Shown one piece after another: positions 2,827-40,431 of a DNA stretch of 64,000 nt. Position numbers and translations under genes: made by a program. The notes under the pieces were generated by a model. That model worked only from the letters and a program-made list of their open reading frames with translations, did not search any database and was not told the DNA's origin. The first letter of the stretch is position 1, and each line of letters begins with the position of its first letter. The DNA is from Gammaproteobacteria bacterium (GTDB lineage Bacteria; Pseudomonadota; Gammaproteobacteria; Eutrophobiales; Eutrophobiaceae): the NCBI GenBank assembly GCA_965222155.1, contig CBDCTH010000004.1:480001-544000 (forward strand), written 5' to 3'.

Positions 2827-2973
2827 GGGTTTTGGGCGTTGTTATTCCGCGACTAGCGCCAGAGCCTGCCCCTGCATGCCGTAAGCAGGGGGACGAGCGC
2901 GGGCCAGAGCCTGCCCCTGCATGTTGTAAGCAGGGGGATGGCCCACGGAGCGGCCAAACAGCCCCCAAAACCC
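2827..2973. repeat. Palindromic element family E with two nested 28-bp inserts
   Basis: gggttttggg...cccccaaaaccc arms; second copy at 28067-28168 in the opposite orientation. Confidence 0.8.
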
Positions 2974-2999
2974 GGCGGTCAGAACCTACTGCCATCATT

Positions 3000-4124
3000 T
3001 CACCCCCCGGACGCCCCAGCATAACTACGCTGTTTCCAGTCCGCGCCAGCCCCGGTCCAGTGGCGCCAGGCGGAACTCCAGGTCATCAGCAGGTAAAGCG
3101 CACCGGCAAGGGGTAATCCAACGCACCAGAACGGATTGATTTCATAGTAACGCAGGGTGGGCAGGAAACTTGCCGCCATCAGGAGCAAGCCGGTAACGGC
3201 AAGTAACCGGGTAGCAGGGTCTGCGCAGAGCAGGCCGGCTACGGGCAACACAAAGCCGGCCGAGAGCAGGGCGCTGCATAACAGCAGCAGTCCGATGGAA
3301 TAACGCAACTGGGTAAAAGCAGTCCTGGCGACCATGTTCCAGATGCCCGACAGCCCGTCATAACGGCGCCGGCTGTGGGCAGAGTGTGATAAACCAATCC
3401 AGGTGGCAAAGCCGGCCTGCCTGAATTGGCGGGCCAGCGCGCAATCATCGATTAAACTGTTTTTTATCGCCTCGAAACCACCCACCTGCACAAGTGAGTC
3501 AAGCCGCAGCAGGATACAGCCGCCGGCCGCAGCGGCAACTGCTTTTGAACCGGAGTTAGACAAGTGAAACGGATAAAGCAGCTTGAAAAAATAAACAAAA
3601 GCCGGCATCAACAGCTTCTCCCAGAACGAATCCATGCGCAGGAACGCGAGTAAGGACACCAGGTGCAGGTTTTGTTCCCGCATCCTGGTTTGCAGAGCCG
3701 GGATGGCGCCCGGTCTGAGGCGGATATCAGCATCAAGTAACAAAATGGTTTTTGTCTTCACCAACGGCAGGCCCTGTTGCAATGCCCATAACTTGCCGCT
3801 CCAGCCGGGCTCCAGCGGACAGCCGTTGATAATTGTCAGGTTTTCGATATTTTGACAGCTAGCCTCAACAACAGTTGCATCGGAGGATTGGTCGTCGACC
3901 AGGACGATATGCAGGTTTTGACCCTGAGCGTCAAGGCACAGCAGGGTGTCGGCGATGACATCGGCTTCATTCCTGGCCGGAATCAATACGGTGACATCGG
4001 ACAAGTCAGCGGCCTCGGCGTCGTCCGCTTCCAGTATTTCCCTGATACGCCAGGGTTGCCAGGGAAGCGCCAGGATACCGGTCCAGAGAATGACTCCCGG
4101 TATGACGAGCCAGGCTGGATCCAT
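3000..4124 (-). CDS. hpnB: Hopene-associated glycosyltransferase (GT2)
   Basis: IPARNEA, DDQSSD, GWSGKLWA, LIDDCALA, WNMVARTAFTQL motifs; next to hpnH. Confidence 0.85.
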   Translation of the reverse strand: MDPAWLVIPGVILWTGILALPWQPWRIREILEADDAEAADLSDVTVLIPARNEADVIADTLLCLDAQGQNLHIVLVDDQSSDATVVEASCQNIENLTIINGCPLEPGWSGKLWALQQGLPLVKTKTILLLDADIRLRPGAIPALQTRMREQNLHLVSLLAFLRMDSFWEKLLMPAFVYFFKLLYPFHLSNSGSKAVAAAAGGCILLRLDSLVQVGGFEAIKNSLIDDCALARQFRQAGFATWIGLSHSAHSRRRYDGLSGIWNMVARTAFTQLRYSIGLLLLCSALLSAGFVLPVAGLLCADPATRLLAVTGLLLMAASFLPTLRYYEINPFWCVGLPLAGALYLLMTWSSAWRHWTGAGADWKQRSYAGASGG

Positions 4125-5278
4125 TAAGCGACTTGTTTGTCTTGGTTGTCTTGTTTATTGCTACGGATTATTACCGGCGCGGGTTTGAATTCCGCAACCA
4201 GTTTGGGTTTCGACAGTACTGCATCTTCATCGTAGAGGATGGGCAGTTCAGGGGTCATGTCCCCGGAAGTCCTGGGTCCCAGCACGGCTGCTTTCAACGC
4301 TTTCCACGGACGTTTGACAGCGTCTTCAACGGCTGATGCCTCGTAACCACAGTGTACCATGCAGTTGGCGCATTTCGGATTACGTCCGTTGCCGTAATTT
4401 TGCCATTCCGTTTCTTCCATCAAAGCCTTGAATGTCGGCGCATAACCCTCACCGACCAGCAGGTAACAGGGTTTCTGCCAGCCGAAAACGTTCCTGGTAG
4501 GATTGCCCCAGGGGGTGCACTGGTATTGCTGGTTGCCTGCCAGGAAATCCAGGTACAGGGATGACTGGTTAAAACGCCATTTTTTTCCAACCCCTGATTT
4601 AAAGATGTCCCGGAACAACTGTTTGCTCTCTTTGCGTTTCAGGAAGACGTCCTGGCGCGGCGCTCGTTCGTAACTGTAACCCGGGGATATGGTGACCCCT
4701 TCGACGCCCAGCCCCATGGCCATGTCCATGAACTTCGCCACTTCGTGCGCCTGTTCGCCCTGGAACAAGGTGCAGTTGATAGTCACCCGGAAGCCTTTGC
4801 TCCTGGCCTTTTTGATGACTGAAACACACTTATCGAAGACGCCGGGGCGGCAAACGGAGGCGTCATGCCGGTCCCGGTTGCCGTCAAGGTGAATGGAAAA
4901 AGTCAGGTAGGGAGAGGGCGAATAGTCATTCATGCGCCGGTCCAGCAGCAAGGCATTGGTGCACAGGTAGACATATTTCTTTCTGGCCGTGAAGCCGCGC
5001 ACTATCTCCGGCATATCCTGGTGGATTAATGGCTCCCCGCCGGCGATGGAGACGACCGGGGCGCCGCACTCGTCAACGGCCTGCATGCACTCTTCAACGC
5101 TGAGGCGTTTGTCCAGTATCTCCTCCGGATAGTCGATCTTTCCACAACCGGAGCAGGCCAGGTTGCAACGGAACAGGGGTTCCAGCATCAGCACCAGGGG
5201 AAAGCGCTGTTCGCCGCGCAGCTTTTTCCCAAGAATGTATTTCGATATGCGAAGTTGTTGAGTTAACGGTACAGCCAT
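4124..5278 (-). CDS. hpnH: Adenosylhopane synthase, radical SAM
   Basis: LMLEPLFRCNLACSGCGK (CxxxCxxC), CTPWGNPTRNVFGWQKPCYL, CANCMVHCGYE. Confidence 0.95.
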   Translation of the reverse strand: MAVPLTQQLRISKYILGKKLRGEQRFPLVLMLEPLFRCNLACSGCGKIDYPEEILDKRLSVEECMQAVDECGAPVVSIAGGEPLIHQDMPEIVRGFTARKKYVYLCTNALLLDRRMNDYSPSPYLTFSIHLDGNRDRHDASVCRPGVFDKCVSVIKKARSKGFRVTINCTLFQGEQAHEVAKFMDMAMGLGVEGVTISPGYSYERAPRQDVFLKRKESKQLFRDIFKSGVGKKWRFNQSSLYLDFLAGNQQYQCTPWGNPTRNVFGWQKPCYLLVGEGYAPTFKALMEETEWQNYGNGRNPKCANCMVHCGYEASAVEDAVKRPWKALKAAVLGPRTSGDMTPELPILYDEDAVLSKPKLVAEFKPAPVIIRSNKQDNQDKQVA

Positions 5279-5549
5279 CTGTAGCCTGCTTTTCTGATTA
5301 TCAGTTAAAGATAGAGCGTTTCAGTAGACCGAAACGCGCTCATCCGAGTAAAATATAGGATAAACATCCCAAAGTACAGGATTGTTATGCAATTTAACAT
5401 AAAAACCAGGGTAACTTCATATTATTCGGATAGAATTTTTCATAAACACGGGTCAGCGGGAACCGCTGCAAGGTGAATGCCGTAGTTGCAAGCCGCCGGG
5501 TTTCTGCTTAAAGTAACCGTTCACGACAGAGGGATAAAGAGAACTATTC

Positions 5550-11466: not shown

Positions 11467-13208
11467 GCGCTCCCGGAACGATACTTGTTCATTAACTGTT
11501 GCGTGGATGAGTCATGGGATGTTTGAGTCTCAACGTCTGCCAGTTCTCCCGCTATGCGTCCCGCCAGGTTTTTGCCGAGTTCGACCCCCCACTGGTCGAA
11601 GGGGTTGACCCCCCAGATGGCGGCTTCGACAAAGGTCTTGTGCTCGTAGATGGCCAGCAGCATGCCCAGAGTGTACGGGTCGAGCCGGTCGTACAGGATG
11701 GTGGTGCTGGGCCGGTTGCCGTCGAAGTGTCGATGGGGTTCGGCAGAATTGGTCTCGCCCCGCATCAGGGCTTCTCCCTGGGCCAGGCAGTTGGCAACCA
11801 GCAATTCGTGTTGCCTGCTGTCATGACGGCTGTCAAGGGGAAGCAGAAAATCAATGGTTGACAAGCGCGTACCCTGGTGCAGGAACTGGAAAACGGCATG
11901 TTGCGAGTTGCTGCCGACACCGCCCCAGATGACCTGGGAGGTCTTTGTTCCCACCCTGTTTCCCTCCGTGTCGACCGATTTGCCGTTACTCTCCATGACC
12001 AGCTGGCTCAAATAAGCCGGCAATCTTTCCAGCCTTTGATCATAGGGGATAACGGCATGGGCGCCGACGTCAAGAAAGTTGTTATACCAGATACCGAGCA
12101 GGGCCAGGATCACGGGGATATTTTTGCTGAATTCAGCGGACCGGAAGTGTGAATCAACTTCGTGCGCCCCCGCCAGGAAACGCCTGAAATTATCTTCGCC
12201 GATGCTGATGGCGCTGCTCATGCCGACACAGGACCAGATTGAATAACGCCCACCGGTCCAGTCTTCGATCTTGAAATAACGGTCTCGGCCGATGCCGAAA
12301 CGCTCGATTGCGGCGGCGTTTGCCGATACGGCCAGGAAGTGTTTGCCGGTATCCCCGCAACCGTTCTCCCTGAGCCAGTTTTGCGCGCGCTGTGCGTTGA
12401 CCTGGGTTTCCAGTGTCGTGAAGGATTTGGAAGCGACGATAAATAGCGTTGTTTCGGGATGCGCGCGCGCCAGGACGTTCTCGATGTCAAAGGGGTCAAT
12501 GTTGGCGACGAAATCGATGTCTATCCCGTCCTGGTGATATTCGGACAGCGCCTCAATCACCAGGCGCGCACCCAGGTCGGAGCCGCCGATGCCGATGTTC
12601 ACCACCCTGGTTATGGGTTTTCCTGTGGCGCCCATGATCTCTCCGGCGCGTAATCTCTGTACGAACTCGAACATCCTGTTCAATTCCTGACACACCTGCC
12701 GGGCGGTATCGGAAAGGACGCGTTCGCCCTGGATTTCCATCCTTTGGTTCGTCAACGGCACATCCTTGTGCCACTTCTCTGCTTGCGCAGGAATGGTGGC
12801 CTCGTCGCCATCCAGTTGATTGCCGGCTGCCTCGTTGCCATTCCTGCGCAAGCAGGAATCCAGTAACAACCCGGTCCCTTCCTTGCCTTCCGGCGCTCTC
12901 AGCAGGGTATGCAGCGCGGGACGGTGTTCCGTGGTGTTGACTTCGTGTCCTGAGAATAATTCGTCTATCATGTTACCCAGCCCGCGTTGCTCGGCCAACT
13001 CCAACAACAATGACAGGGTTTCGTCAGTGATCAGGTTCTTGGAAAAATCGACAAAAACCCGCTCAAGGCCGAGTGAAAACCGTTGCGCCCGCCCCGGATC
13101 CCGGATAAATTCCTCGCGCAGGCGCAACTGCGCCACCTGCCGCTGGTGTTCTGTAAGGAGGCGCCAAGCCTTTGCCTGTTCCGGCGGATTGTTTTTTTGT
13201 ACTGTCAT
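11463..13208 (-). CDS. pgi: Glucose-6-phosphate isomerase carrying an in-frame ~45-aa repeat-derived insertion
   Basis: IGIGGSDLG, ASKSFTT, GGRYS, QLVMESNGK, FDQWGVELGK motifs; start placed at MTVQK. Confidence 0.95.
   Translation of the reverse strand: MTVQKNNPPEQAKAWRLLTEHQRQVAQLRLREEFIRDPGRAQRFSLGLERVFVDFSKNLITDETLSLLLELAEQRGLGNMIDELFSGHEVNTTEHRPALHTLLRAPEGKEGTGLLLDSCLRRNGNEAAGNQLDGDEATIPAQAEKWHKDVPLTNQRMEIQGERVLSDTARQVCQELNRMFEFVQRLRAGEIMGATGKPITRVVNIGIGGSDLGARLVIEALSEYHQDGIDIDFVANIDPFDIENVLARAHPETTLFIVASKSFTTLETQVNAQRAQNWLRENGCGDTGKHFLAVSANAAAIERFGIGRDRYFKIEDWTGGRYSIWSCVGMSSAISIGEDNFRRFLAGAHEVDSHFRSAEFSKNIPVILALLGIWYNNFLDVGAHAVIPYDQRLERLPAYLSQLVMESNGKSVDTEGNRVGTKTSQVIWGGVGSNSQHAVFQFLHQGTRLSTIDFLLPLDSRHDSRQHELLVANCLAQGEALMRGETNSAEPHRHFDGNRPSTTILYDRLDPYTLGMLLAIYEHKTFVEAAIWGVNPFDQWGVELGKNLAGRIAGELADVETQTSHDSSTQQLMNKYRSGSA
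12729..12863. repeat. Two family A REPs (one with a family B insert) inside pgi
   Basis: ctggatt-[B]-ctgcttgcgcaggaatgg and gccattcctgcgcaagcaggaatccag. Confidence 0.85.
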
Positions 13209-13279
13209 AGGGGAAATCCCTCTATTATAGTAACGACTTAAATCTACCATTCAACTGATAATATTGGAACCTGGCCTCG

Positions 13280-13477
13280 GTGGAAGATTTTCGGATAAAA
13301 TCGAGTGAAGCCAGGATATCGGGAGACCTGACCTTGTATTATCAGGAAAGCGGCAAGGGTTTGCCGCTCGTCTTTATCCCCGGCTGGACGATCTGGTCGC
13401 TTCGTCCATCACCAGCATCTGATATGAGTATATTTCAGGCAAGGTTTTTATTCTCCCACATTCTAAAGCAGGATTAG
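13280..13477 (+). pseudogene. N-terminal fragment of an alpha/beta hydrolase
   Basis: LYYQESGKGLPLVFIPGWT resembles a hydrolase start; similarity is lost after ~37 aa. Confidence 0.55.
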
Positions 13478-13560
13478 GGAATATGTCGATGTGACGATAT
13501 ATGCCATTATATCTATACTTGACACCAGCTTACCGGATACATAGCCTGAGAGAGAAGACC

Positions 13561-13758
13561 GTGGCAAGCAGCTTAAATCTATCACTGACAAATGAACTGC
13601 GGAAATTCGTCGATAGTCGAACGGGTGACTCCGGCGTTTACGCAACGCCAAGCGAATATATACGCGACCTGATCCGCCATGATATGGAAGCTGGTACGAT
13701 ACTCAATCATGTATTGGCCAGCCTTGATGATATCAAACGATGTAGTCCGTTTTATTGA
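13561..13758 (+). CDS. ParD-like ribbon-helix-helix antitoxin, orphan and possibly truncated
   Basis: SLNLSLTNELRKFVD...YATPSEYIRDLIR; GTG start; TTGACA at 13519. Confidence 0.7.
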   Translation: MASSLNLSLTNELRKFVDSRTGDSGVYATPSEYIRDLIRHDMEAGTILNHVLASLDDIKRCSPFY

Positions 13759-13802
13759 AAATGCTAATTTTGAAAACGTTAATACGCTTTGCCAGGAAGA
13801 AA

Positions 13803-13879
13803 TGGCGCCCTGAAGAGGATTCGAACCTCTGGCCTTCCGCTTAGGAGGCGGACGCTCTATCCTTCTGAGCTATCAGGGC
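13803..13879 (-). tRNA. tRNA-Arg(CCT)
   Basis: Cloverleaf gccctga...tcagggc-g-cca, anticodon loop ctCCTaa, T-loop GTTCGAATC. Confidence 0.95.
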
Positions 13880-14010
13880 GTGGCTATACAGTTTACCGGA
13901 AATCCGGTTTCAGTGATGTATCAAGTGTAATTATCAAGTTTAGCAGCAGGCAATAAATGACGCAGGATTGAAACTGCCCGGCATGTGTTGTCCCGGCATA
14001 AATATACTTA

Positions 14011-14187
14011 AGGAACCTCTGATTAAGTCAGAGGTTCCTGCGATACAGGGATGTATCGCCAAATTCAATGACAATAAGTCATTGAATTTGTAAGGAAAAC
14101 AAAAATCACATTTTTGTTTTCCGTGCTCTGGCAAGTCCAGAGCCTGTCCCGTACTTGATACGGGAATGGACTTGTTCAGAGTTTCCT
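14011..14187 (+). mobile_element. MITE-like element D copy 1 (153 bp plus a 24-bp nested insert)
   Basis: TIR aggaacctctg...cagagtttcct flanked by TA; five internal hairpins. Confidence 0.8.
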
Positions 14188-14311
14188 TAAACATAAAAGT
14201 TGAATATAATCCCACGCATGAAACCCTGGACTGGCTCGGAGCGTCTGATTTTACCCCGTTAAGACGCGGGGCACTCGGACAGGGCGGCAGTTGTAGAGGT
14301 GCTCTGTCCTG

Positions 14312-14986
14312 ATGCAGAAATATTCAATAATTATTCCCGCGTTGAATGAAGCGGATTATATCGGTGCGACCCTGGAACACCTCCAGGCTGCTCGTGGCCG
14401 GGGCCATGAGGTTATTCTTGTGGATGGCGGCAGTACTGATGACACTTGCAGGATCGCGGCAAGCGGGGTCGATCACGTGCTGGAATGCGCTCCGAGCAGG
14501 GGCGGCCAGATGAATTACGGTGCGCGGATTGCGCGCGGCGATATCTACGTGTTCCTCCATGCAGATTCCTTGCTGCATAGTGAATTTGACCGGAGCCTGG
14601 ATGCGCACTCCGTTTCCGGGAACACCTGGGGGAGCTTTGATATCGGCTTGTCCGGCAATCATTTCATGTTCCGTTGCATTGAGAAGCTCATAAATATCCG
14701 TTCCCGGCTTACCGGTATAGCAACGGGCGACCAGACAATTTTTATCGGCCAGGGTATTTTCCGGCAGATGAACGGCTATGCGGACATTCCCCTGATGGAA
14801 GATTTGGAACTGACCTCAAGACTGAATAAAATCTCCCCACCCATCCGTATCAGCCAGACTGTTATCAGTTCATCCCGCCGTTGGGAAAACAACGGAATCG
14901 CCAGGACAATATTACTCACATGGAAATTAAGGCTCTGTTATGCAATCGGATCCGACCCGCGCGATCTCGTCAAACAGTATCGGTGA
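14312..14986 (+). CDS. GT2 glycosyltransferase, rSAM/selenodomain-associated type (TIGR04283-like)
   Basis: IIIPALNEA, VDGGSTD, FLHADS, TGDQTIF, PLMEDLE, SSRRW motifs. Confidence 0.85.
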   Translation: MQKYSIIIPALNEADYIGATLEHLQAARGRGHEVILVDGGSTDDTCRIAASGVDHVLECAPSRGGQMNYGARIARGDIYVFLHADSLLHSEFDRSLDAHSVSGNTWGSFDIGLSGNHFMFRCIEKLINIRSRLTGIATGDQTIFIGQGIFRQMNGYADIPLMEDLELTSRLNKISPPIRISQTVISSSRRWENNGIARTILLTWKLRLCYAIGSDPRDLVKQYR

Positions 14987-15581
14987 AACAGCAGAGGTAT
15001 TGCTTGTTTTCACCAAAACGCCCGTGCCGGGGAGGGTGAAAACCCGTCTTATACCGGTTACCAGCGCCGTGCAGGCGGCTGCTATCCATACCAATCTGCT
15101 AAGGCAGACACTCGCAACAGCCCGCAGCTCGTCTGTGCGGGACATTGAATTGTGGTGTATGCCGACCGTGCAGCACCGGTCTCTTATTGACTTCAAGGAA
15201 GAGTTCTTGTTGTTACTGCGAGCCCAGGCCGGCGCGGACCTGGGCGAGCGTATGTATTTCGCCATGGAACAGGCCCTGGAAAACTATCGCCGCGTGGTGC
15301 TTATCGGCAGCGATTGTATTGACTTGACCGCAGCGGATATTGACCTTGCCCTGAAAAAACTGGCTGAAGGTTACGACGTCGTTCTGGGCCCGTCCCTGGA
15401 CGGCGGGTATCACCTGATCGGGTTGACCAGGTTATATCGGCAACTGTTTATGGATATCCCGTGGGGGACAGACGAGGTAATGCAGAAAACCCGGGAGCGG
15501 GTCACCCGGATGGAATTAAAACTGTATGAATTACCCGAGCGACGCGATCTTGATCGGCCCGAGGACCTTCAGTATACGTAA
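14940..15581 (+). CDS. DUF2064/CofC-like transferase (TIGR04282-like); start uncertain
   Basis: PGRVKTRL, QxGxDLGERM, IGSDC, LGPSLDGGYHLIG, DLDRPEDL motifs. Confidence 0.85.
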   Translation: MQSDPTRAISSNSIGETAEVLLVFTKTPVPGRVKTRLIPVTSAVQAAAIHTNLLRQTLATARSSSVRDIELWCMPTVQHRSLIDFKEEFLLLLRAQAGADLGERMYFAMEQALENYRRVVLIGSDCIDLTAADIDLALKKLAEGYDVVLGPSLDGGYHLIGLTRLYRQLFMDIPWGTDEVMQKTRERVTRMELKLYELPERRDLDRPEDLQYT

Positions 15582-15617
15582 CCGGGGAAGCCGGGCTTGA
15601 ATCCGGCAGGTTTCTTA

Positions 15618-15770
15618 GGGAAGCTCTGATCAAGTCCGTCCAGGACTTGTCAGAGCAAGGAAAACAAAAATGCGATTTTTGTTTTCCTTCCAAAATCAAT
15701 GACATATAGTCATTGATTTTGACGGTACATCCTTGTACCGTAGGAACCTCTGACTTAATCAGAGGTTCCT
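15618..15770 (-). mobile_element. MITE-like element D copy 2 (153 bp)
   Basis: Reverse-orientation homolog of copy 1, flanked by TA. Confidence 0.8.
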
Positions 15771-15970
15771 TAGCTGAAAATCCGCCAGAGAATGGCTGTG
15801 GTCAGTGCCAGGTTAAAGCCGGCCATCCATTGCAGCAGGTTGACTTTTCCGTCCAGACGGTTAAATCTATCTTCCCACGCGGCGACAGCCGTCGCGGCAG
15901 CGCGGGCTTTTGCCTCATCTGCGCCGGCGTTGGTCAGTGCATCATACAGTTCCGTCATCATCATACTCAT
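15770..15970 (-). CDS. Small coiled-coil protein with C-terminal TM helix (DUF1640/CCDC90-like)
   Basis: TELYDAL...ARAAA...LQWMAGFNLALT; paralog at 63580-63807. Confidence 0.7.
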   Translation of the reverse strand: MSMMMTELYDALTNAGADEAKARAAATAVAAWEDRFNRLDGKVNLLQWMAGFNLALTTAILWRIFS

Positions 15971-16259: not shown

Positions 16260-16263
16260 ATAC

Positions 16264-16761: not shown

Positions 16762-16777
16762 AAGTGAATTATACTAT

Positions 16778-16805: not shown

Positions 16806-16807
16806 TG

Positions 16808-18559: not shown

Positions 18560-18915
18560 TACCGGGCATCCCCCCGTCGCCATACCGGGCTTGACCCCCC
18601 GTCGCCATACCGGGCATGACCCCCCGTCGCCATACCGGGCTTGACCCCCCGTCGCCATACCGGGCCTGACCCCCCCGTCGCCCCCCTGACCCCCCGTCGC
18701 CATACCGGGCCTGACCCCCCGTCGCCATACCGGGCAAAATGTCGCCATACCGGGCATACCCCCATCGTCATACCGGGCTTGTCCCGGTATCCAGTATGAT
18801 ACTATGTCGCCCCTGGCTTACGACATGCCGGGGCAGGCTCCGGCGACTCATTGTTTCACTGGATTTCCGTCCTTTGGTCCGTTGACGGCACTACTCGGCA
18901 TCCGTCGGAATGACG
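18560..18915. repeat. 25-bp tandem array of REP outer arm followed by a REP pair with nested C and deleted-B inserts
   Basis: About 8 copies of gtcgccataccgggc(t/a/c)tgacccccc, then cgtcataccgggcttgtcccggtatccag ... ctggatttccgtcc...ggaatgacg. Confidence 0.85.
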
Positions 18916-24596: not shown

Positions 24597-24607
24597 TTGT
24601 TACGCTA

Positions 24608-25542: not shown

Positions 25543-27294
25543 TTATCCTGCTTCGGCTTGTGAAGTGATCGCCTGTTTCAGGTCTACTCTTTCGATGAAG
25601 CCTTTACGCGCGGCGACGCGGGATAATTTACCCGATGATGTGCGCGGCAAGGTACGCGGCGGTACCAGGTCCACGTAGCAGTAAATGCCAAAACCCTCGT
25701 ACACATTTCTCTGCAGTTGCTTGATCAACGATTGCCTGGCCGTGGATTCGGTGAGACGGCATTCAACCACCAGTACGACGATCTGTTGATCATCGTCGAC
25801 CTCGATATCAAATGCCGATGATTCGCCCATTCTGATCTCGTCCAGCCCTTCTGCTATCTCTTCAAGGTCCTGGGCGCGGATATTCCTGCCGTTTACGATG
25901 ATGATGTCTTTACGCCGTCCCGTCAGGTAGAGGTTGTGCTCAAACTGGAAGCCCAGGTCACCGGTATCCAGCCAGCCGTCTTCAAGGATCACCTGGTCGG
26001 TTGATTCCTGATCGTTCAGGTAACCGTTCATCAGGCTGGGGCCTTTTACCATTACTCTGCCGACGCGCAGGTCAGGCAATATATCCCCGGCGTTATCAAC
26101 AATCCTGATCTCGTGGTCGGGCAGGGCGCGGCCACAATTAACGACTTCATTCACTTTGCGATTATCCGACTTGACGCGCACGGCAATGCCGCGTTCAGCC
26201 ATGGTCAGTGCGTCCACCGACATAACGTCCAGACCGCGGTTCAATTCCGAGAAGGTAGCGGCAAGGGAGGCCTCAGCCAGTCCGTAACAGGGCAGGAAGG
26301 CATTGGAGTTGAACCCGGTTTGCGCCATTGTCTCCGCAAAAGCCTCAAATGTGCTGGAGCGCAACATCTCTGCGCCGATACCGGCAATACGCCAGCAGCT
26401 CAGGTCAAGCTGTTGCAGGTCTGCGCTGCGAATTCTACGGGTGCACAGCTCGTAACCGAATGGCGGCGAGAAGGCAATAGTGCAGCGGTTCCTGCTGATT
26501 AGACGCAGCCATTGCAAGGGGCGAATGGCAAAATCCCGTGTGCGCAGGTAATCTACCGACAACTGGGAGGCGATGGGGCCCAAAACGAAGCCGACCAGAC
26601 CCATGTCATGATAGAACGGCAACCAGGATGCGCAACGATCACCGTTGTGTACTTTTAATCCGCTTCTTACGATTCCCTGCAGATTGCTCATTACCGCCTT
26701 TCCGGTAATGATGACGCCCTGTGGGGAGCGGGTGCTGCCGGAAGTAAACTGCAGGTAGGCCGGTTCTTCAGGTCTGCTTGGCTCAAGGGAACGCTGTGAA
26801 GGAGCAATGTCAGACAGTTGGTCCGGTGTGCCTATCCATTCAAGGTCCTTGTTGTCGACGGCGGCTTCTTCCAGAAAGCTGATAAATTCTTTATGCGCTA
26901 TGGCTACTTTTGCCTTGCCGCTGGTCAACAAACCCTTGAGTTGTTGAACATAAACCGCATGGCTGCCGAGATTCAGGGGGATCGGCATGGCGAACGGCAC
27001 AAGTCCGATATACTGACAGGCAAAGAATAGAACGATGAAATCGGGGTGAGTATCAGCTACCAGAGCAATATGATCACCGCGTTTCAGATCCAGACTGAGA
27101 AGACGCCGAGCCGCGAACTTAGCCTGTTGCTGTAGTTCACTGTAGGGCAAAACGACGCTAAGGTTGCCTTTTGCATCGTAAAAATTAGATCCGGTAACAC
27201 CTGCGGCTGCGTAGTCCAGCGCTTCAGACAAACACGAGAAACCGGCAAAATTTTGCGTCAGTGTATTATCAGTGATCGTCGTTTCTCGGTTCAC
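25543..27294 (-). CDS. Fatty acyl-AMP ligase
   Basis: YLQFTSGSTRSP, SWLPFYHDMGL, CYGLAE, DTGDLG, LPRTSSGK motifs. Confidence 0.9.
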   Translation of the reverse strand: MNRETTITDNTLTQNFAGFSCLSEALDYAAAGVTGSNFYDAKGNLSVVLPYSELQQQAKFAARRLLSLDLKRGDHIALVADTHPDFIVLFFACQYIGLVPFAMPIPLNLGSHAVYVQQLKGLLTSGKAKVAIAHKEFISFLEEAAVDNKDLEWIGTPDQLSDIAPSQRSLEPSRPEEPAYLQFTSGSTRSPQGVIITGKAVMSNLQGIVRSGLKVHNGDRCASWLPFYHDMGLVGFVLGPIASQLSVDYLRTRDFAIRPLQWLRLISRNRCTIAFSPPFGYELCTRRIRSADLQQLDLSCWRIAGIGAEMLRSSTFEAFAETMAQTGFNSNAFLPCYGLAEASLAATFSELNRGLDVMSVDALTMAERGIAVRVKSDNRKVNEVVNCGRALPDHEIRIVDNAGDILPDLRVGRVMVKGPSLMNGYLNDQESTDQVILEDGWLDTGDLGFQFEHNLYLTGRRKDIIIVNGRNIRAQDLEEIAEGLDEIRMGESSAFDIEVDDDQQIVVLVVECRLTESTARQSLIKQLQRNVYEGFGIYCYVDLVPPRTLPRTSSGKLSRVAARKGFIERVDLKQAITSQAEAG

Positions 27295-27519
27295 GATGAA
27301 TAAACCCCCGTCTCGTTCTTTTTTGTGCCTGTTGACAACGACAGATTTATTTTTGACCTATAACAAAGTCCTTCCGCAAGCATAGGATACCTAACCTGTT
27401 ATTTTCAAATACGAATTATAATCATAAAACACGCCCATTGTATATCTTTACAAAGGCTAAGGCGATAAATATTACACAACCTGAAGAAAACTTCCATCTT
27501 TTTTTTAAATGTACTTTAC

Positions 27520-27978
27520 TCAGGCCGGCCACAATGACCTGAGTTCATCCCGTAGTTGATTAAAGACCGTGCCGTCAATCTGGTTATCGATCCCCAGATT
27601 CGGTGGTCCGGGCCAGGCAGAATCGGAGAATTCCGCCCCCGCATAATGACGTTTTGCCGCATAACGTGGTATCACGTGAAAATGGACGTGAGGATCAACC
27701 ATCATCAACATCAGGTAGTTCAGTTTATCATAATGAAAAAGATGCGATAATACCGTGTCAATATCATGTGTGACCTGGGCCAGTTCGGTAAAACCGGCCT
27801 GGCTGAGCTGCGAAAATGCCGTTACCGGTCCGCGGGCAACCAGTACCAGGGCGCCGAGTGTTACTTGAGCGGGGCGCAACAATACCGACCAGGTGGAATA
27901 AGTATGGATACTTGTTTCAGGCGCCCCGAATTTCAACATCGTATCGTTCAGGGTGTTAAAAGACATATCCGGTATCAC
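27520..27978 (-). CDS. HIT family hydrolase
   Basis: HVHFH triad, LMLMMVDP. Confidence 0.9.
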   Translation of the reverse strand: MIPDMSFNTLNDTMLKFGAPETSIHTYSTWSVLLRPAQVTLGALVLVARGPVTAFSQLSQAGFTELAQVTHDIDTVLSHLFHYDKLNYLMLMMVDPHVHFHVIPRYAAKRHYAGAEFSDSAWPGPPNLGIDNQIDGTVFNQLRDELRSLWPA

Positions 27979-28066
27979 CGATCAATATGATAAGGCTTTG
28001 TATACTATACGATGACAGACAAGAGATCAAAGTTCTTTTCGGGGATGAAGCAATATTCGATATCCA

Positions 28067-28168
28067 GGTTTTGGGGACTGTTTGCCCGTTCCGAGGGCCA
28101 TCCCCCCTGCTTACGACATGCAGGGGCAGGCTCTGGCGCTAGTCACGAACAAACAGCCCCCAAAACCC
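28067..28168. repeat. Family E element copy 2 with one nested C insert
   Basis: ggttttggggactgttt ... aaacagcccccaaaaccc. Confidence 0.8.
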
Positions 28169-28203
28169 ATCATAAGTGAAATTAACGGGAGTCGCTGTCG
28201 AGA

Positions 28204-29346
28204 ATGAAGCGGAAGCTGACTGACGAGATCCGGGTGACGCCGGTGAGTAACTGGCGCCAGTTGAATGCGTTTATTCGCCTGCCCTGGCGCCTGTACGCGC
28301 AGGACCCCCTGTGGGTGCCGCCATTGAAACTTGAACGCAGGTTGCATTTCTCCTCCCTGAACCCTTATTTTGCCCATGGCCGCTGGCAGGGCTGGATTGC
28401 CTGGCAGGGGGACCGGCCGGTAGGCCGTATCAGCGCCCAGGTTGATGAATTGCACCGCCGCCACTATGGCGAGAAATCCGGCCATTTCGGTTTTCTGGAG
28501 TGTGAAAACAACCCGGATGTGATGCGCGCGCTGGTAGCGGAAAGCGAGCGGTGGCTGGCGCAATATCAGACCGAAGTGATTACCGGCCCTTTCAATTTTT
28601 CCATCAACCAGGAATGCGGCCTGCTGGTGGACGGTTTCGATACCCCGCCGGTGATAATGATGCCCCATAATCATCGCTGGTACGCTGAACTGCTTGAACA
28701 GCAGGGCTATTCTGCCGCAAAAGACATGTATGCCTATTGGATTAACCCCAACTTTGCCATTCCGCGGGTCATGCAGACCTTCGTGGACAAGTTTGGCAAG
28801 TCGGTCAGGTTGAGGGGATTAAACCGGAAGAAATTCAAGCAGGAACTGGAGACCTTGCGGGATATTTTTAATGATGCCTGGTCCGATAACTGGGGTTTCG
28901 TCCCGTTCACCAGGGAGGAATTCGCCGAACTGGGAACCAGTTTACGGTTATTCGTACCGGATAATTTCATCCGTATTGCGGAGTACCAGGGGGAGCCGGT
29001 TGCGTTTATCGCCGCCCTGCCCAACCTGAATGAAGTTCTGCGGGACCTGGACGGCACTTTATTCCCGTCGGGTCTGTTTAAAATTATCCAGGCGTTGCGC
29101 AAGCGCCGCATCAGGACGGGCAGGGTCCCGTTAATGGGGGTCAGGAAGGAATTGCAGAATACCCCATTGGGAATTGCCTTGGCGTTTCTTATTATACATG
29201 AGATCAGACGGTCGATTATCGACAGGGGGATAGAGGGCGTGGAAATGTCCTGGATACTGGAGGACAACCAGGGGATGCGCAGCATCCTGGAAAGGCTTGG
29301 CAGCAAGCTGTACAAGACTTACCGGATCTACCGGAAGCAGTTGTAA
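28204..29346 (+). CDS. GNAT-fold acyltransferase, probable bacterial ceramide synthase (bCerS-like)
   Basis: WVPPL, GRISA, GPFNFSINQECGLLVDGF, FNDAWSDNWGF, SWILEDN motifs; in the spt cluster. Confidence 0.8.
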   Translation: MKRKLTDEIRVTPVSNWRQLNAFIRLPWRLYAQDPLWVPPLKLERRLHFSSLNPYFAHGRWQGWIAWQGDRPVGRISAQVDELHRRHYGEKSGHFGFLECENNPDVMRALVAESERWLAQYQTEVITGPFNFSINQECGLLVDGFDTPPVIMMPHNHRWYAELLEQQGYSAAKDMYAYWINPNFAIPRVMQTFVDKFGKSVRLRGLNRKKFKQELETLRDIFNDAWSDNWGFVPFTREEFAELGTSLRLFVPDNFIRIAEYQGEPVAFIAALPNLNEVLRDLDGTLFPSGLFKIIQALRKRRIRTGRVPLMGVRKELQNTPLGIALAFLIIHEIRRSIIDRGIEGVEMSWILEDNQGMRSILERLGSKLYKTYRIYRKQL

Positions 29347-29350
29347 CGTT

Positions 29351-30172
29351 TTGTCGAATAAACAGAAAATTGCCGTCTTGTTGTTGGCCGGGAGGCGTGG
29401 CGGCAGCGATGAGGTTGCCCGTGTTGCCGGCGTCTCCAGCAAGGTATTGGCGCCGCTGGCGGGAATACCGATGATCATGCGGGTAATCAACGCGTTGCAG
29501 GCAAGCGAGCGAATCGCCTCCTTTGTACTGTGCGGTCCGGCCCCGGCAGCCATCAACGACTGCCCGGCGTTACGGCAGTTCATCGAGGCGGACAACGTCA
29601 CCTGGATCCCCGCAACAGGCAGTCTCAGCGGCAGTGTGCAGGCCGGCCTGGCCGCGATAGACCCCGCTGCGCTGGTCCTGATTACCAGCGCGGACCATGC
29701 GCTACTGGACGCCGGGATACTTGATTATTTTCTCGATAAGGCCATTGACAGCCGCGCCGACGTCAGTGTGGGACTGGTGGAATACGGTTTGATCGAGAAG
29801 GCATACCCGGGAGTGCGGCGCACGGTGCTGAAGTTTTCCGATGGCGGCTACTGCGGCTGCAATTTATACGCACTCTCCGGTGTCCGGGCCCGGGACATTA
29901 TTTCATTGTGGCAACGGATACAGACGCAGCGTAAGCAGCCTTGGCGGATGGCTCTCAGGTTATTTGGTTTCGGCGCGCTGGCGAGGTATGTCTGCGGCCG
30001 TCTGAGTATGCGGCAGACCAGTCAGGCCATCCTGAAAACCACCGGTATTACAGTGGATTTCATCAATCTGCCGTTCGCTCATGCAGGTATCGACGTGGAT
30101 ACGCTGGCGGACAAGGAACTGGTGGAACGGATACTGGCCGGCGCCATTCCGGCGAAAGCCGGAATCCAGTGA
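29351..30172 (+). CDS. MobA-like nucleotidyltransferase; last residues encoded by a REP
   Basis: LLAGRRG, KVLAPLAG, SADHAL, IDVDT; ends AIPAKAGIQ. Confidence 0.8.
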   Translation: MSNKQKIAVLLLAGRRGGSDEVARVAGVSSKVLAPLAGIPMIMRVINALQASERIASFVLCGPAPAAINDCPALRQFIEADNVTWIPATGSLSGSVQAGLAAIDPAALVLITSADHALLDAGILDYFLDKAIDSRADVSVGLVEYGLIEKAYPGVRRTVLKFSDGGYCGCNLYALSGVRARDIISLWQRIQTQRKQPWRMALRLFGFGALARYVCGRLSMRQTSQAILKTTGITVDFINLPFAHAGIDVDTLADKELVERILAGAIPAKAGIQ

Positions 30173-30261
30173 AACAAAGTGTCGCCGGAGCCTGCCCCGG
30201 CATGTCGTAAGCCAGGGGCGACACAATATCAATCTGGATTCCGGCATTTGCCGGAATGACG
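30142..30261. repeat. Family A REP pair with a C insert in the central hairpin
   Basis: cgccattccggcgaaagccggaatccag ... ctggattccggcatttgccggaatgacg. Confidence 0.85.
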
Positions 30262-30326
30262 TACGGCATTCCTCGGCCGGATTTTTGCCCTCTGCGGCAG
30301 AATCTGAAAGTATGCGGTTGCCCTGT

Positions 30327-31055
30327 TTATGGAATCACAACGGTCTCAGCATTATCCAGGTCTTTTTTGAAGTCTATCTCGCACCAGCGGTGGCCGTTTA
30401 TGCTGCAGGCGCGTACCTGGGATTGCCCGGCCAAGGTATCCACCACGCTCAGGAACCATAAGCGCAGACCGGTTCCCTGCTTCATCTGCCGGTCCAGTTG
30501 ATCGCGGAACTGTGCCGGTCCGTCTCCCCGGAAATACAGCAGGCCGATGGATTCCGCCATGGTGTGTTCATCCGGTAATGTTTTGCTGACGGCTTGCACC
30601 ATGGAGCCATGCAGTTCGACCCGCATATCATCATTGTCGTAACTGTCTTTGTAGTCGATGGTTAATGTGACCGGCGCCGCAGGTGAATTGAGAACCGTAT
30701 CCAGTAAAGCCGGCTCAAACAGCGTGTCGCCATTCAATAAAAGAAAATCCTCATCCATTGCGTGACGCGCCATCCAGCAACTCGCCAGGTTGTCGGAAAC
30801 GCTGTAAAAGGGATTGAATACAATATTTATCCGGTCCAGGTCAGCGGCGAAGCGGTCATTGATATGCTCCTCAATGAGCGCCGAATTAAACCCGGTGATG
30901 ATGAACACCTTGTCTATTTGAGCTGCCAGTAATGCTTGCACCTGCCACTCCAGTATGGTTTTGCCGGCAACGGGAAGCATGCACTTGGGGCGCGTTTCGG
31001 TCAGGGGCAGCAGTCTTTTCCCCTGGCCCGCGCCTAATATAATTGCGTTAATCAT
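30327..31055 (-). CDS. Phosphocholine cytidylyltransferase family protein
   Basis: IILGAGQGKRL..PKC, NGDTLF, AESIG, WCEIDF motifs. Confidence 0.85.
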   Translation of the reverse strand: MINAIILGAGQGKRLLPLTETRPKCMLPVAGKTILEWQVQALLAAQIDKVFIITGFNSALIEEHINDRFAADLDRINIVFNPFYSVSDNLASCWMARHAMDEDFLLLNGDTLFEPALLDTVLNSPAAPVTLTIDYKDSYDNDDMRVELHGSMVQAVSKTLPDEHTMAESIGLLYFRGDGPAQFRDQLDRQMKQGTGLRLWFLSVVDTLAGQSQVRACSINGHRWCEIDFKKDLDNAETVVIP

Positions 31056-31151
31056 GTTGTTTTTTGTTAACTGGCCAGATATTTCCGTGTGTGAGGTGAG
31101 CAGTTTAATGAAATTTATAATACAATCAAAATTCAATTGACTGGATGCCGC

Positions 31152-32231
31152 ATGTCACATATTGAACGCTATATCATTCTGGAAGTACTCAGACCCTTCA
31201 GTTTCGTATTAATCATCCTGGTCGCCCTGTTTGCCTGTTTCAGCAGCGCAAGATACCTGGCGGAAGCGGTGACGGAGACTCTGGGCGTCTATTTCATGGT
31301 CAAACTGATTTTACTCAAGACCTTCATCGCCCTGGAAGTCCTGATTCCCATTGCCCTTTACACATCCGTCGTGATTGGCTTGGGCAGGCTGCACCGGGAC
31401 CGGGAGATGGTGGCCCTTAGCGCCGCCGGTTTCAGTAACAGCCGCATTATCGGCCCGATTGTCGTCATTTCCATCCCGATTGTCCTGGCCGTGGGTGCGC
31501 TGTCCCTGTACGGCCGTCCCTGGGCCTACCAGAATAGTTATATCCTGGATGCCAGGGCCAGGGCCGATTTGAATACGGACCGGTTTCAACAGGGACGGTT
31601 CTACGGCAATGAAGATACCGGCACGGTTATCTACATTGCCGAAAAAGACGAGGCGAGCGGCGTGATCTCCAGGATATTTTACTATACCCGCAAGGACGAC
31701 TTCAGTGAAATTACCGCGGCGGTGAATGCCGGCCAGGACAAAGGCCTGGAGAACGGCAGGCTGCGGGTAACCCTGTATGACGGATTGCTGTACCGATTGC
31801 AGCGCGATTCAATGGACGATGAAGTCATCCGCTTTGATAAGCTGGTCAGGTTTCATGAAGACCCCGAGGTAAGTATCGGTTATAAACGCAAGGCTGAAGC
31901 GACTCTCACGCTGCTCGAGTCCAATAGTCAGGAGGATATCGCAGAAGTCCAATGGCGCTTATCCCGTCCCGTTGCAACGTTGCTGCTGGCGCTGATCGCG
32001 ATACCCCTGAGCCGTTCGTCCCCCCGGCAGGGGAAAAATGAAAGGGTATTCACGGCTGCGTTGATATTTGCGGTGTATTACAACCTCAGCGGTGTTGCCC
32101 AGACCTGGGTGGAGCAGGGCATAATGGATGAGATCCCCGGGGTCTGGTGGTTGCATGTACTGATGGCGCTGGTTGTTTTCATGTTCCTTTACGAGAGATT
32201 TAATCGGCGTTTCCTGCAAGGGTTTCGTTAG
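31152..32231 (+). CDS. lptF: LptF/YjgP family permease paralog
   Basis: LGRLHRDREM, QWRLSRP, PLSRSSPRQG motifs; paired with LptG. Confidence 0.85.
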   Translation: MSHIERYIILEVLRPFSFVLIILVALFACFSSARYLAEAVTETLGVYFMVKLILLKTFIALEVLIPIALYTSVVIGLGRLHRDREMVALSAAGFSNSRIIGPIVVISIPIVLAVGALSLYGRPWAYQNSYILDARARADLNTDRFQQGRFYGNEDTGTVIYIAEKDEASGVISRIFYYTRKDDFSEITAAVNAGQDKGLENGRLRVTLYDGLLYRLQRDSMDDEVIRFDKLVRFHEDPEVSIGYKRKAEATLTLLESNSQEDIAEVQWRLSRPVATLLLALIAIPLSRSSPRQGKNERVFTAALIFAVYYNLSGVAQTWVEQGIMDEIPGVWWLHVLMALVVFMFLYERFNRRFLQGFR

Positions 32232-39061: not shown

Positions 39062-39383
39062 CGTCATTCCGGCACCCGTTCTCGTCGTCATTCCGGCACC
39101 CGTTCTCGTCGTCATTCCGGCACCTGTTCTCGTCGTCATTCCGGCGCAGGCTGCACGCACGCCGTCATTCTGGCACCTGTTCTCGTCGTTATTCTAGCAC
39201 CCGTTCTCGTCGTCATTCCGGCGAATGCCGGAATCCAGTAAGCAACCTTCCTTATTATAATGAATAAGTTGTCTACTGGATTCCGGCATTCGCCGGAATG
39301 ACAGCAAGGTCGCCGGAATGACGGTAAGGTCGCCGGGATGACGGTAAGGTCGCCGGGATGACGGCAGGGTCGCCGGGATGACG
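39062..39383. repeat. Family A REP pair flanked by 24-bp (left) and 20-bp (right) tandem arrays of the REP outer arm
   Basis: cgtcattccggcacccgttctcgt x6; REPs at 39211 and 39276; ggtcgccggRatgacgg x4. Confidence 0.85.
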
Positions 39384-39389
39384 GTATTC

Positions 39390-40166
39390 TTACCTGAACA
39401 GGTCTTTGTCCGGCGCTCTTATCAGCGCGCTGGCGTCCTCGTCCCGGCCGCGCAGTTCAAGACCTTTGATCAGCACCGCCGGTATGCCCTGTGCCGCCTG
39501 GCCCATGACCAGGGAGGCGGCTGCGGCAATCTCATCTGCGATACCTACCTCGGTCACGCGCAACGGGTTGCCGTGCAAGTCGCGTTCACCGCGCAGGTCC
39601 AGCAGGCAGGGCAGGCCGGCGGCGCCGATGGCGATGCCGGTGACGCCGTTGCGCCAGGCGCGGCCGGCGCTGTCGTTGATGATAACACCGACGTGGGCGC
39701 CCCGACGCGTCTTGATTGCTGCGTGAATTTCAGCAGCGCTGACATTGGCGTCTTCGGGCAACAGCAATACCTTTTCCGAGCTGGTGTTTTGTGGGATATT
39801 GGAGTGGTCGATACCGGCGTTGGCATGGACGAATCCCAGTTTGTGTTCAACGATTAAAACGTCTTCCCGGTACCTGACCAGCCGTTTCGATTGAGCCAGT
39901 ATCAACTCCACCAGGCGCGGGTCTTTATTGACTTTTTGCGCCAGTTGCTCGGCCTGGTCCGATGGTGTTACCTCGGCCAGGTCCACGTAGCGGTTCTCTG
40001 CCTTCGAGATAATCTTCTGGGCGATAACCAGGATATCGCCGTCAACAAGAGGGTATTCCTGCAACCGGGCCAGCAGCAGTTGTGCCAGGTTATCGCCGGG
40101 CATGATTTCAGCAATACCGCGCACGGGCAGCAGTTGAATACCCTTGTCTGATTTGTTGCTGTTCAT
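39390..40166 (-). CDS. cofE: Coenzyme F420-0:L-glutamate ligase
   Basis: QKIISKAE, ANAGIDHSN, LLLPED, DSAGRAWR, ADEIAAAA, DLFR; the upstream ORF extension is repeat sequence. Confidence 0.92.
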   Translation of the reverse strand: MNSNKSDKGIQLLPVRGIAEIMPGDNLAQLLLARLQEYPLVDGDILVIAQKIISKAENRYVDLAEVTPSDQAEQLAQKVNKDPRLVELILAQSKRLVRYREDVLIVEHKLGFVHANAGIDHSNIPQNTSSEKVLLLPEDANVSAAEIHAAIKTRRGAHVGVIINDSAGRAWRNGVTGIAIGAAGLPCLLDLRGERDLHGNPLRVTEVGIADEIAAAASLVMGQAAQGIPAVLIKGLELRGRDEDASALIRAPDKDLFR

Positions 40167-40201
40167 AACAGTGATCCAAGTAACGTTCCGGCGTATGTTA
40201 T

Positions 40202-40431
40202 CGTCGTTCCGGCGCATGCCGAGTAGTGGCACATAGCCTGCCCCTGCATGCTGTAAGCAGGGGGATGTGCCGTCAACGGACCAAAGGACGGAGTAGTGGC
40301 ACATGGATGTGCCGTCAACGAACCAAAGGACGGAAATCCAGTAAATAATGAGTCGCCTCAGGCGACACAATAACATACTGGATACCGGGTCAAGCCCGGT
40401 ATGACGACGGGGGGTCAAGCCCGGTATGACG
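40202..40431. repeat. Family A REP pair with two tandem B inserts, the first containing a C insert
   Basis: B 40222-40291 (with C 40235-40262), B 40292-40333; right REP ends 40406; duplicated arm to 40431. Confidence 0.85.

Follow-up and report, generated by a model that had tools for sequence, protein, structure and literature searches.

The 64,000 nucleotides analysed here (the window: positions 480,001 to 544,000 of contig CBDCTH010000004.1, assembly GCA_965222155.1, from a gammaproteobacterium of the Eutrophobiaceae) contain, inside several different repeats, the same motif of 24-30 nucleotides (nt), a tag AGCCTG followed by a small CCC...GGG hairpin. The question raised by this locus is whether so short a sequence is mobile in its own right. 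An earlier note on the window had taken it for a tiny non-autonomous insertion with other repeats as its hosts, a parasite of them, and this part of its reading holds. The motif, called below the AGCYTG-hairpin element, has precise ends, makes no target duplication, has unfilled paralogous sites in many unrelated hosts and differs in occupancy at an orthologous locus. It is a real, very small, non-autonomous mobile element living on other repeats. The window is part of a 4.55-Mb genome in 12 contigs, labelled G000.

In the window, the 10-mer AGCCTGYCCC has seven matches for 0.34 expected, a number reached by none of 100 shuffled sequences, and the seven copies listed in the earlier note are all present (Table 1). 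The bare 10-mer occurs 182 times genome-wide. A copy of the element was defined as the tag plus the hairpin, with one mismatch or bulge allowed; this gave 147 matches, four of which were discarded as chance, leaving 143. The element consists of an AGCYTG tag (AGCCTG in 106 copies, AGCTTG in 37) and one GC-rich hairpin with a stem of 6-7 bp, for a total length of 24-32 nt, mostly 25 and 28-30. The stem base CCC/GGG is fixed and stem positions 2-3 are invariant across the 143 copies. Compensatory double changes are found at stem positions 1 (C-G/T-A), 5 (T-A/G-C/C-G), 6 (G-C/T-A) and 7 (C-G/A-T), and these paired changes in the upper stem indicate that the hairpin is under constraint, the tag and the stem base being the fixed recognition part. 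The subfamilies F1 to F6 are told apart by their upper stem and loop (Table 1); F2 copies interrupted by a nested F1 were left out of the F2 count. An Rfam search of the window returned only four tRNAs at gathering scores, and the element matched no family. Domain V of group II introns was considered, as the element in its nested form, AGCCTGCC-CCTGC-GAAA-GCAGG-GG-GGCAGGCT, is laid out much like such a domain. It was rejected because the five introns of this genome have an ordinary, unrelated domain V and because the lower helix has no 3' strand in normal copies of the element.

Unfilled sites were sought genome-wide by joining both flanks of each copy with a short gap. Filled and unfilled sites differ by 24-29 nt that start with AGCYTG and end in a run of G, with a boundary ambiguity of at most 1-3 nt (junctions in Table 1). 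No target duplication was seen at any junction examined, that in an IS5-family insertion sequence (IS) included, in agreement with the earlier note. The unfilled counterparts that it had pointed out are also there: the two tandem units of repeat B measure 70 nt when filled (40221-40290) and 42 nt when unfilled (40291-40332), repeat D1 is filled and both D2 and a D copy of the nearest species are unfilled, with a difference of 24 nt, and two unfilled GTCGCC hairpins lie in the window. In the IS5-family transposase gene the insert appears as a 29-nt alignment gap and breaks the reading frame; seven copies fall in this flank class. An in-frame insertion was envisaged at this site and dropped, since the 513-aa open frame of one filled copy uses another frame across the central stretch.

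The state of the hairpin site H1 was compared among its 66 occurrences, of which 32 are unfilled, 13 carry F2, two carry F1 and 19 carry F2 with a nested F1. F1 alone lies in the same orientation as F2, and nested F1 is reversed. On a tree built from the 163-nt H1 backbones, which are short sequences, copies in the different states are intermingled: the smallest distance between two copies that differ in state is 3 positions out of 163, and filled copies often have a nearest neighbour whose state is not their own. A single filled clade descending from one ancestral insertion is excluded. Each of the four sequence variants of B likewise has filled and unfilled members.

Comparison with the nearest species (G019, 91% identical over window positions 1300-4600, spacer included) gave one informative locus. 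The repeat E at this locus, a unit resembling a miniature inverted-repeat transposable element (MITE), is common to both genomes, and in G000 both of its hairpins contain the element. The second hairpin, filled at 2908..2936 in G000, is unfilled in G019 (gggccATGGATggccc); the first (about 2985-3075 of locus L150) has no element in G019 and carries an H1 module of ~85 nt instead (window 2860-2905). The comparison of orthologous loci called for by the earlier note thus finds both G000 copies of this E unit missing in G019. At the other five window loci the entire host repeats differ between the two species, which takes them out of a clean ortholog test. The E unit at about 28060-28172, for example, is wholly missing in G019, and at window 28066-28172 just ~19 nt resembling the left terminal repeat of E are found there (CAGGTATTGGGGCTGTTTG), which may be what an excision left behind, or else a solo end. 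Contigs of runs X1, X3, X4 and X7, compared over window 12000-31999, break at repeats and so do not tell whether close strains have gained or lost the 28-nt unit; a joint 28076->28173 in X4 and X7 contigs skips the whole E unit.

In order to describe the target, the 143 copies were sorted by their flanks into 53 classes, a sorting that over-splits somewhat. The three bases on the left are CAG in 35 of the 53 classes and the four bases are CCAG in 23, ACAG in 9 and CCGG in 7, that is 39 of 53 in this genome. As the base after the left flank is usually G, the target reads CCRG↓G (the arrow marks the insertion point). Flank stems were scored as perfect complementary flanks within 6 nt, with 20,000 random genome positions as background. 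Stems of at least 5 bp enclose 18 of the 53 classes (49 of the 143 copies) versus 5.0% of the random positions, and stems of at least 6 bp enclose 15 classes versus 1.6%. Among classes with CCAG on the left, 9 of 23 lie in hairpins of at least 6 bp, compared to 1.7% of all 22,877 CCAG↓G sites. Hairpin tips are strongly preferred but not obligatory. The claim of the earlier note that the element is found only inside hairpin loops was too strong, for the remaining classes have no such stem: about 31 copies lie in the stem of a sister element, F2, 17 in H7, a stemless site of the MITE, and seven in the IS5-family transposase frame, besides several single sites. In G000 the CCRG rule on the left is no less general than the location in loops. 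Cutting of the Dcm/Vsr type at CCWGG was considered as an explanation for CCAG↓G and dropped, since CCGG↓G and CAT↓GG are also used.

The ends of the element themselves conform to this target rule, both at the 3' end (GCAGG↓GG) and in the reverse complement of the 5' end (CAG↓GGGCAGGCT), which accounts for the tandem and nested forms: about 31 F1 copies sit in F2 at CAG↓GGG, and one tandem dimer was found. When the window copies were folded as single-stranded DNA, the host stem enclosed the element hairpin for B, E and the GTCGCC repeat, and the best fold of D1 was a different one. The three-deep nesting at 40203-40341 is real in the sense that the element lies in B and B in host A, a repeat with the features of CGTC-1 repetitive extragenic palindromes (REPs) (cgtcattccggcgaaagccggaatccag); B, however, occupies the 3' arm of A and not its loop. 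We also observed that a tip CA(G/T)GGAT(G) is common to otherwise unrelated stems, namely H1, B, both E hairpins and both D hairpins (window 14060-14080, 14150-14175, 2855-2935 and 40228-40270, plus the H1 sites). Tips of this type are found unfilled at 76 places genome-wide.

The distribution of the element was then followed with the strict pattern AGCYTGCCCCTG-N8-12-GCAGGGG. It matches 95 times in G000, 1-14 times in 9 of 22 other species of the genus and not once in 18 sampled genomes of other genera. In the relatives of the genus, nearly all copies occupy either the loop of a CGTC-type REP or a B hairpin, and both orientations are found (contexts in Table 1). A scan of all prokaryotes, with one genome per species, gave at least 93 stretches with the pattern in many phyla; among the matches listed, the records carry labels of metagenome-assembled genomes (MAGs) of Nitrospirota, Nitrospinota, Latescibacterota, Deltaproteobacteria, Planctomycetota, Elusimicrobiota, Dehalococcoidia and others. 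The 82 matches listed, in 80 loci, have the loop pattern of the family in 60 cases, with the cross-phylum consensus AGCCTG CCCCTGC AKGYAKTAA GCAGGGG, and 12 of these 60 have flank stems of at least 5 bp. Five distant genomes contain 8, 9, 12, 16 and 18 strict copies, and none of the reversed control pattern. By reading, the three main contexts of the listed matches in other phyla are loops of CGTC-type REPs, the inside of tandem heptamer arrays, and positions just after a hairpin. Five stretches in viral contigs match the pattern: that of L166 is a true member, three are one coding-like sequence and one is doubtful, so that these five gave no evidence of a phage vector.

As to the way in which the element moves, we estimate at about 0.5 the probability that it represents a family of the REP kind, or of the kind of the small dispersed repeats (SDRs) of cyanobacteria: 24-30 nt, single-hairpin, non-coding mobile elements moved as single strands by an HUH/Y1 enzyme acting in trans. 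The element would be excised or copied as single-stranded DNA and then joined into single-stranded targets displayed by hairpins, by an enzyme supplied in trans and most likely of the HUH/Y1 type. Insertion is precise and leaves no target duplication; in G000 it takes place 3' of CCRG and before G, with a preference for CCRG↓G sites that the hairpin of another repeat displays at its tip. The CCTG of the tag, located 5' of the hairpin foot, would act as a guide by pairing with the CAGG present in the target and in the 3' end of the element itself. In IS608, guide sequences pair with the cleavage site and the guide lies 5' of the hairpin foot. CCTG is the reverse complement of the CAGG found at the target and at the element 3' end in G000, and in this genome only. 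What points to an HUH enzyme is the anatomy: the absence of duplication, the one-sided tag, the short target on the left, the preference for hairpin tips and the size, which makes a double-stranded intermediate implausible.

Several observations weigh against this proposal. The element has one hairpin, and the ends of IS200/IS605 elements have two. The three Y1_Tnp matches of G000 correspond to two full-length proteins, of 222 aa (C12:2623897-2624562) and 285 aa (C12:1985271-1986125), and a remnant with a stop codon, and no element lies within about 1.5 kb of any of them. Y1 genes are also present in each of the five distant carrier genomes, and at the 6 Y1 loci examined there no element was found within about 1.5 kb either; none of these nine Y1 loci carries the element. 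The earlier note had suggested looking for genes for a REP-associated tyrosine transposase (RAYT) or TnpA(Y1) flanked by the motif. No Y1_Tnp match was obtained in G003 (1 contig, 96% complete, 11 copies), G008 (9 copies) or G001, and RAYT-like genes show no association with the element across the 22 species of the genus. Some junctions are not clean: D shows a 1-nt replacement, at H7 the unfilled CTGCG faces CGG plus element, and in GTCGCC hosts an insert beginning with A requires an ancestral loop GG (30 unfilled loops compared). Some of the mixing of states on the H1 tree could also result from gene conversion between host copies. No replication-strand bias appears relative to GC skew on contig C12 (56 versus 52), a test made weak by the fact that most copies are passengers in other mobile repeats. 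Finally, the CCRG left flank fails elsewhere, relatives having CGA, CAA, TTC and ACA and other phyla variable bases, so that guide pairing fits G000 only. Of the structure-specific HUH/RAYT mechanism put forward in the earlier note, the over-use of hairpin tips stands; the enzyme class is still a deduction, with no Y1 link and no strand bias to go with it. An autonomous parent was also looked for, and no gene-sized interval bounded by neighbouring copies less than 6 kb apart was found.

The 222-aa Y1 transposase of G000 (G000:C12:2622439-2625762, L001) is flanked by inverted repeats of its own (GGGGACAC.. / GGGGACACAATACTTAATT), has a partial duplicate of its 3' end just downstream, and has more fragments scattered in the genome. 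Its organisation fits the 'TIRYT' type as presented in PMC3733652.

A first alternative is that the element is not independently mobile and is a long-loop variant of a REP hairpin which originated on a few occasions and was then carried along by its hosts (MITEs, REPs, an IS), gene conversion or precise deletions between short repeats later reshuffling the filled and unfilled states. Most copies are in fact passengers (31 in F2, 17 in the MITE site H7, 13 in B and 7 in IS copies), each relative has nearly all its copies in one host context, and G003 and G008 share orthologous copies, such as L009 with L021 and L006 with L023. REP loops with self-complementary inner regions up to 27 bp are moreover known loop variants, according to PMC3733652. 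However, one 24-30 nt unit with constant boundaries is found in at least 12 unrelated contexts in G000, among them a transposase frame and single-copy sites, and its surroundings in other phyla, for instance heptamer arrays, are of quite another kind. F1 and F2 both occupy the H1 site, the orthologous E hairpin is unfilled in G019, and conversion requires homology when the hosts share few bases. We regard passive spread as unlikely.

Selection could also have kept the motif as a conserved binding or processing site of a widespread protein such as a recombinase, a nuclease or an RNA-binding factor. This would suit the conservation of about 20 of 29 bases in MAGs of Proteobacteria, Nitrospirota, Nitrospinota, Latescibacterota, Planctomycetota, Elusimicrobiota and Chloroflexota (among the matches listed) and the modest copy numbers, 8-18, of the five distant genomes. 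But a search within 2.5 kb of the 80 loci in other phyla revealed no conserved neighbour gene, the largest protein cluster covering 4 loci; copies lie inside selfish repeats and interrupt a transposase gene; and 95 strict matches in G000 versus 0-14 in 22 congeners is a distribution typical of selfish DNA. A function as a binding site thus seems improbable to us.

We consider still less probable a spread through RNA, in which repeat transcripts would be copied by reverse transcriptase, or RNA ligation would be fixed by it, and the stable RNA hairpin would be retained. The T-G at stem position 7 of 29 F2 copies would be a G-U pair in RNA, host REP loops are of the GNRA type (e.g. GAAA, GTAA, GGAA), and the genome possesses group II introns and reverse transcriptase (5 domain V and 5 RVT_1 matches). 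On the other hand, no poly(A), target duplication or other mark of retro-insertion accompanies the element, intron domain V is unrelated to it in sequence, four of the five RVT_1 matches carry stop codons, and the element is found in both orientations relative to host REPs. As for a MITE of a DDE transposase, with the stem arms CCCCTGC/GCAGGGG as terminal inverted repeats, it is very improbable even though the arms are perfect 7-bp inverted repeats in a genome rich in MITEs and IS copies: no junction examined has a target duplication, the AGCYTG tag is one-sided and is not part of the arms, being external to them, and a 28-bp double-stranded element is, to our knowledge, too short for known DDE enzymes to synapse and excise.

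The preferred reading, single-strand movement by an HUH/Y1 enzyme, places the element close to systems already described. SDR4, SDR5 and SDR6 of Nostocaceae, attributed to Elhai et al. 2008 (Genome Res 18:1484), are reportedly 21-27 nt, hairpin-forming, non-coding and dispersed, and they are reported to be nested in MITEs, in tandem heptamers and within one another. We know of no enzyme for SDRs. Compared by description, the element resembles them in size, hairpin, dispersal and precise insertion. By the definition of SDRs (21-27 nt, absent from orthologous sites, nesting in repeats) it would be counted among them, and its nesting places are of the same kinds: MITEs, copies of its own family and, in other phyla, arrays of tandem heptamers. 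It differs in its occurrence in a proteobacterial genus and many other phyla, in its tag and target, and in that its preference for hairpin tips is quantified. SDR5 inserts precisely between the third and fourth base of HIP1 (PMC4390886), and SDRs are reported only from Nostocaceae (PMC5861425). REPs inserted within small palindromes are mentioned in passing in section 7 of PMC3733652. The statement of the earlier note that no described system behaves in this way therefore went too far, the Nostocaceae SDRs being a close precedent.

REPs and their doublets (REPINs) have a short single-stranded tag 5' of an imperfect hairpin, a covarying stem and a presumed single-stranded HUH mechanism, as given in PMC3116915 and PMC3733652. 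The element shares with the GTAG-tagged ones a short imperfect palindrome, a covarying stem and a dispersed, mostly intergenic distribution. It departs from them by its tag AGCYTG, the reverse strand ending in CAGGCT, whereas hosts B and H1 do carry GTAG. Unlike REPINs its copies are single and not inverted doublets; it flanks no RAYT gene (9 Y1 loci) and has carriers such as G003 and G008 that lack Y1_Tnp; and its filled sites within other repeats have clean unfilled counterparts. CGTC-tagged REPs (dRS3-like; Di Nocera et al. 2013) occur in distant taxa and have no dedicated transposase according to PMC3733652. The element is like them in its spread over distant taxa and in an inner stem of the type CCYGC...GCRGG, but has no CGTC/TGTC tag, no 8-9 bp stem starting with AT, no 4-5 nt loop and no CCA(G) tail. 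CGTC-type REPs are the commonest hosts in relatives and, among the matches listed, in other phyla, with the element inside their loops. With IS200/IS605 elements and palindrome-associated transposable elements (PATEs) the element has in common the absence of target duplication, asymmetric ends with a hairpin near the end and a sequence 5' of the hairpin foot that could serve as a guide by pairing with the cleavage site. Insertion 3' of a short fixed sequence would be a further resemblance in G000, where the left flank is CCAG, ACAG or CCGG in 39 of 53 classes, but not in relatives or other phyla. It differs by its single hairpin, a 10-50x smaller size, no tnpA partner found and no replication-strand bias. 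IS1397, the IS110 family and others insert into REP hairpins (PMC3116915 and PMC3733652); these are full-length elements with their own transposase, and ours is a 28-nt passenger.

A literature search with one 12-mer and four 11-mers of the element gave no relevant setting among the matches listed. Among tiny mobile DNAs the element is best seen as a novel form of the REP/SDR type, not as a new category, and its mechanism is unproven; it is a candidate for one of the smallest mobile elements known. Its spread across phyla and its frequent residence in loops of CGTC-type REPs had not been anticipated and raise its interest. More tentatively, and with less chance of being right than the reading above, the AGCYTG-hairpin may be a third 'tagged' palindromic superfamily beside GTAG and CGTC REPs, present in at least 7 phyla, for which a structure-recognising enzyme would insert a ~28-nt single strand at hairpin tips. 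This hypothetical enzyme might also mobilise the CGTC-type REPs that host the element.

Table 1. Element copies, host repeats, subfamilies, junctions and related features (window positions unless a contig is named; ↓, insertion point)
Feature	Position	Strand	Sequence	Context
Element copy, F4	2863..2891	+	loop ATGCCGTAA	first internal hairpin of E MITE; flank stem just 4 bp
Element copy, F4	2908..2936	+	loop ATGTTGTAA	tip of E hairpin GGGCCA/TGGCCC
Host repeat E, MITE-like	2827..2973	+	terminal inverted repeats GGGTTTTGGG..../....CCCCCAAAACCC	by reading of the sequence
Element copy, F3'	14141..14165	+	stem TCCCGTA/TACGGGA	hairpin CAAGTCCA/TGGACTTG of repeat D1
Host repeat D1	14008..14190	+		also a second, unfilled hairpin with the same tip, GCGATACAGGGATGTATCGC
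Element copy, F5	18810..18839	-	bulged stem CCCCGGC/GCCAGGGG	in GTCGCC/GGCGAC hairpin; 10-mer at 18830-18839
Element copy, F4	28104..28132	-		in shortened E unit; flank stem imperfect; 10-mer at 28123-28132
Element copy, F5	30189..30218	+		in GTGTCGCC/GGCGACAC hairpin
Element copy, F4	40235..40263	+		tip of B hairpin GGCACAT/ATGTGCC
Two tandem B units, GTAG-tagged, REP-like	40221..40332	+		first filled, second unfilled
CGTC-type REP	40203-40220 and 40333-40341			hosts the tandem B units in its 3' arm
Unfilled hairpin	1280..1298		GTGTCGCC-CCT-GGCGACAC	
Unfilled hairpin	40351..40369		GAGTCGCC-TCA-GGCGACAC	
Group II intron/IS5-family places	G000:C1:17138-20213 (L169); C12:32293-35368; C12:1282293-1285368			
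Subfamily F1			CCCCTGC-GGTTGTAA-GCAGGGG	
Subfamily F2			CCCCTG-TATGGAGTTGAG-CAGGGG	
Subfamily F3			CCCCGTA-CTTGA-TACGGGG, and TCCCGTA..TACGGGA	
Subfamily F4			CCCCTGC-ATGYYGTAA-GCAGGGG	
Subfamily F5			CCCCGGC-ATGTCGTAA-GCC(A)GGGG	
Subfamily F6			loop GAAA	
Junction, H1 hairpin TTGCGCCCA/TGGGCGCAA			unfilled CAGGGAT in 7, with variants; filled CAG+element+GGAT	
Junction, B			unfilled CATGGAT; CAT↓GGAT	
Junction, E			unfilled CAGGGAC and CAGGGAT or CATGGAT; CAG↓GGAC, CAG↓GGAT	
Junction, CGTC-type REP (REP-A)			unfilled CGGGTCA; CGG↓GTCA	loop TCAA
Junction, IS5-family element			unfilled CAGGTAC or CAGATAC	
Junction, F2 stem as host			unfilled CAGGGGC; CAG↓GGGC	
CGTC-type context in relatives			cattcctgcGA[..]gcaggaatccag	
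CGTC-type context in relatives			actcccgcttttc[..]cgggagt	opposite orientation
CGTC-type context in relatives			ggatgccggaaca[..]tccggcat	

Some of the host repeats deserve mention for themselves. H1 is a module of a MITE of ~263-480 bp with ~60-90 genome copies, a modular family (e.g. G000:C12:644620-645030) with terminal inverted repeats AGCCCGCATATCTCACCAATTG / CAATTGGTGAGATATGCGGG and length classes produced by nested small inserts. The ~85-nt H1 module (GACAAATCGG...CAATGAAC) acts as a small insertion itself: it has two hairpins with tips like CAGGGATG and is present or absent among copies of the 263-bp MITE. The B units (42 nt, GAGTAGTGGCACAT..AAAGGACG, GTAG-tagged) are found at one constant point in the 3' arms of CGTC-type REPs, in the window and in genome-wide flanks (..gcCG↓GAGTAG...GGACG↓GAAATCCAG), so that here a small hairpin repeat targets a fixed position of another. 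The group II introns of G000 (5 domain V and 5 RVT_1 matches, the stops in four of the latter being TAG) have copies inside or beside copies of the IS5-family element, which is likewise a host of F2. At G000:C4:439937-440375 there is a long array of tandem repeats, ~25 nt in period, that is related to the repeat at window 1300-1365. In other phyla, the heptamer arrays that harbour the element are (GGGGCAA)n, (GGGTCAA)n and (AGCCAGA)n, in L117, L081, L087, L101, L072 and L058 (Nitrospinota/Deltaproteobacteria MAGs). In the context that follows a hairpin, CCCCTCTTT-NNN-AAAGAGGGG and TTAG (or CAAG, TCAG) precede the element and GGAGATTT comes after it; this arrangement, seen in several phyla (L094, L113, L118, L129, L074, L112, L071, L077, L119, L123 and L091), may be a larger conserved composite repeat.

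The practical consequences of such elements are that they break short-read assemblies, whose contigs end inside them, and that they can disrupt genes, as in the IS5-family transposase. The question that they address is how the smallest bacterial repeats, REPs, SDRs and CGTC repeats, multiply. For this purpose the family is clean test material, a 24-29 nt insert with dozens of filled and unfilled sister sites in one genome, to which are added a short target motif, a measurable preference for hairpin tips, self-nesting and near-identical relatives in distant phyla. These properties make the mechanism testable with oligonucleotides and candidate enzymes, and the element gives a lower bound on the size of mobile DNA.

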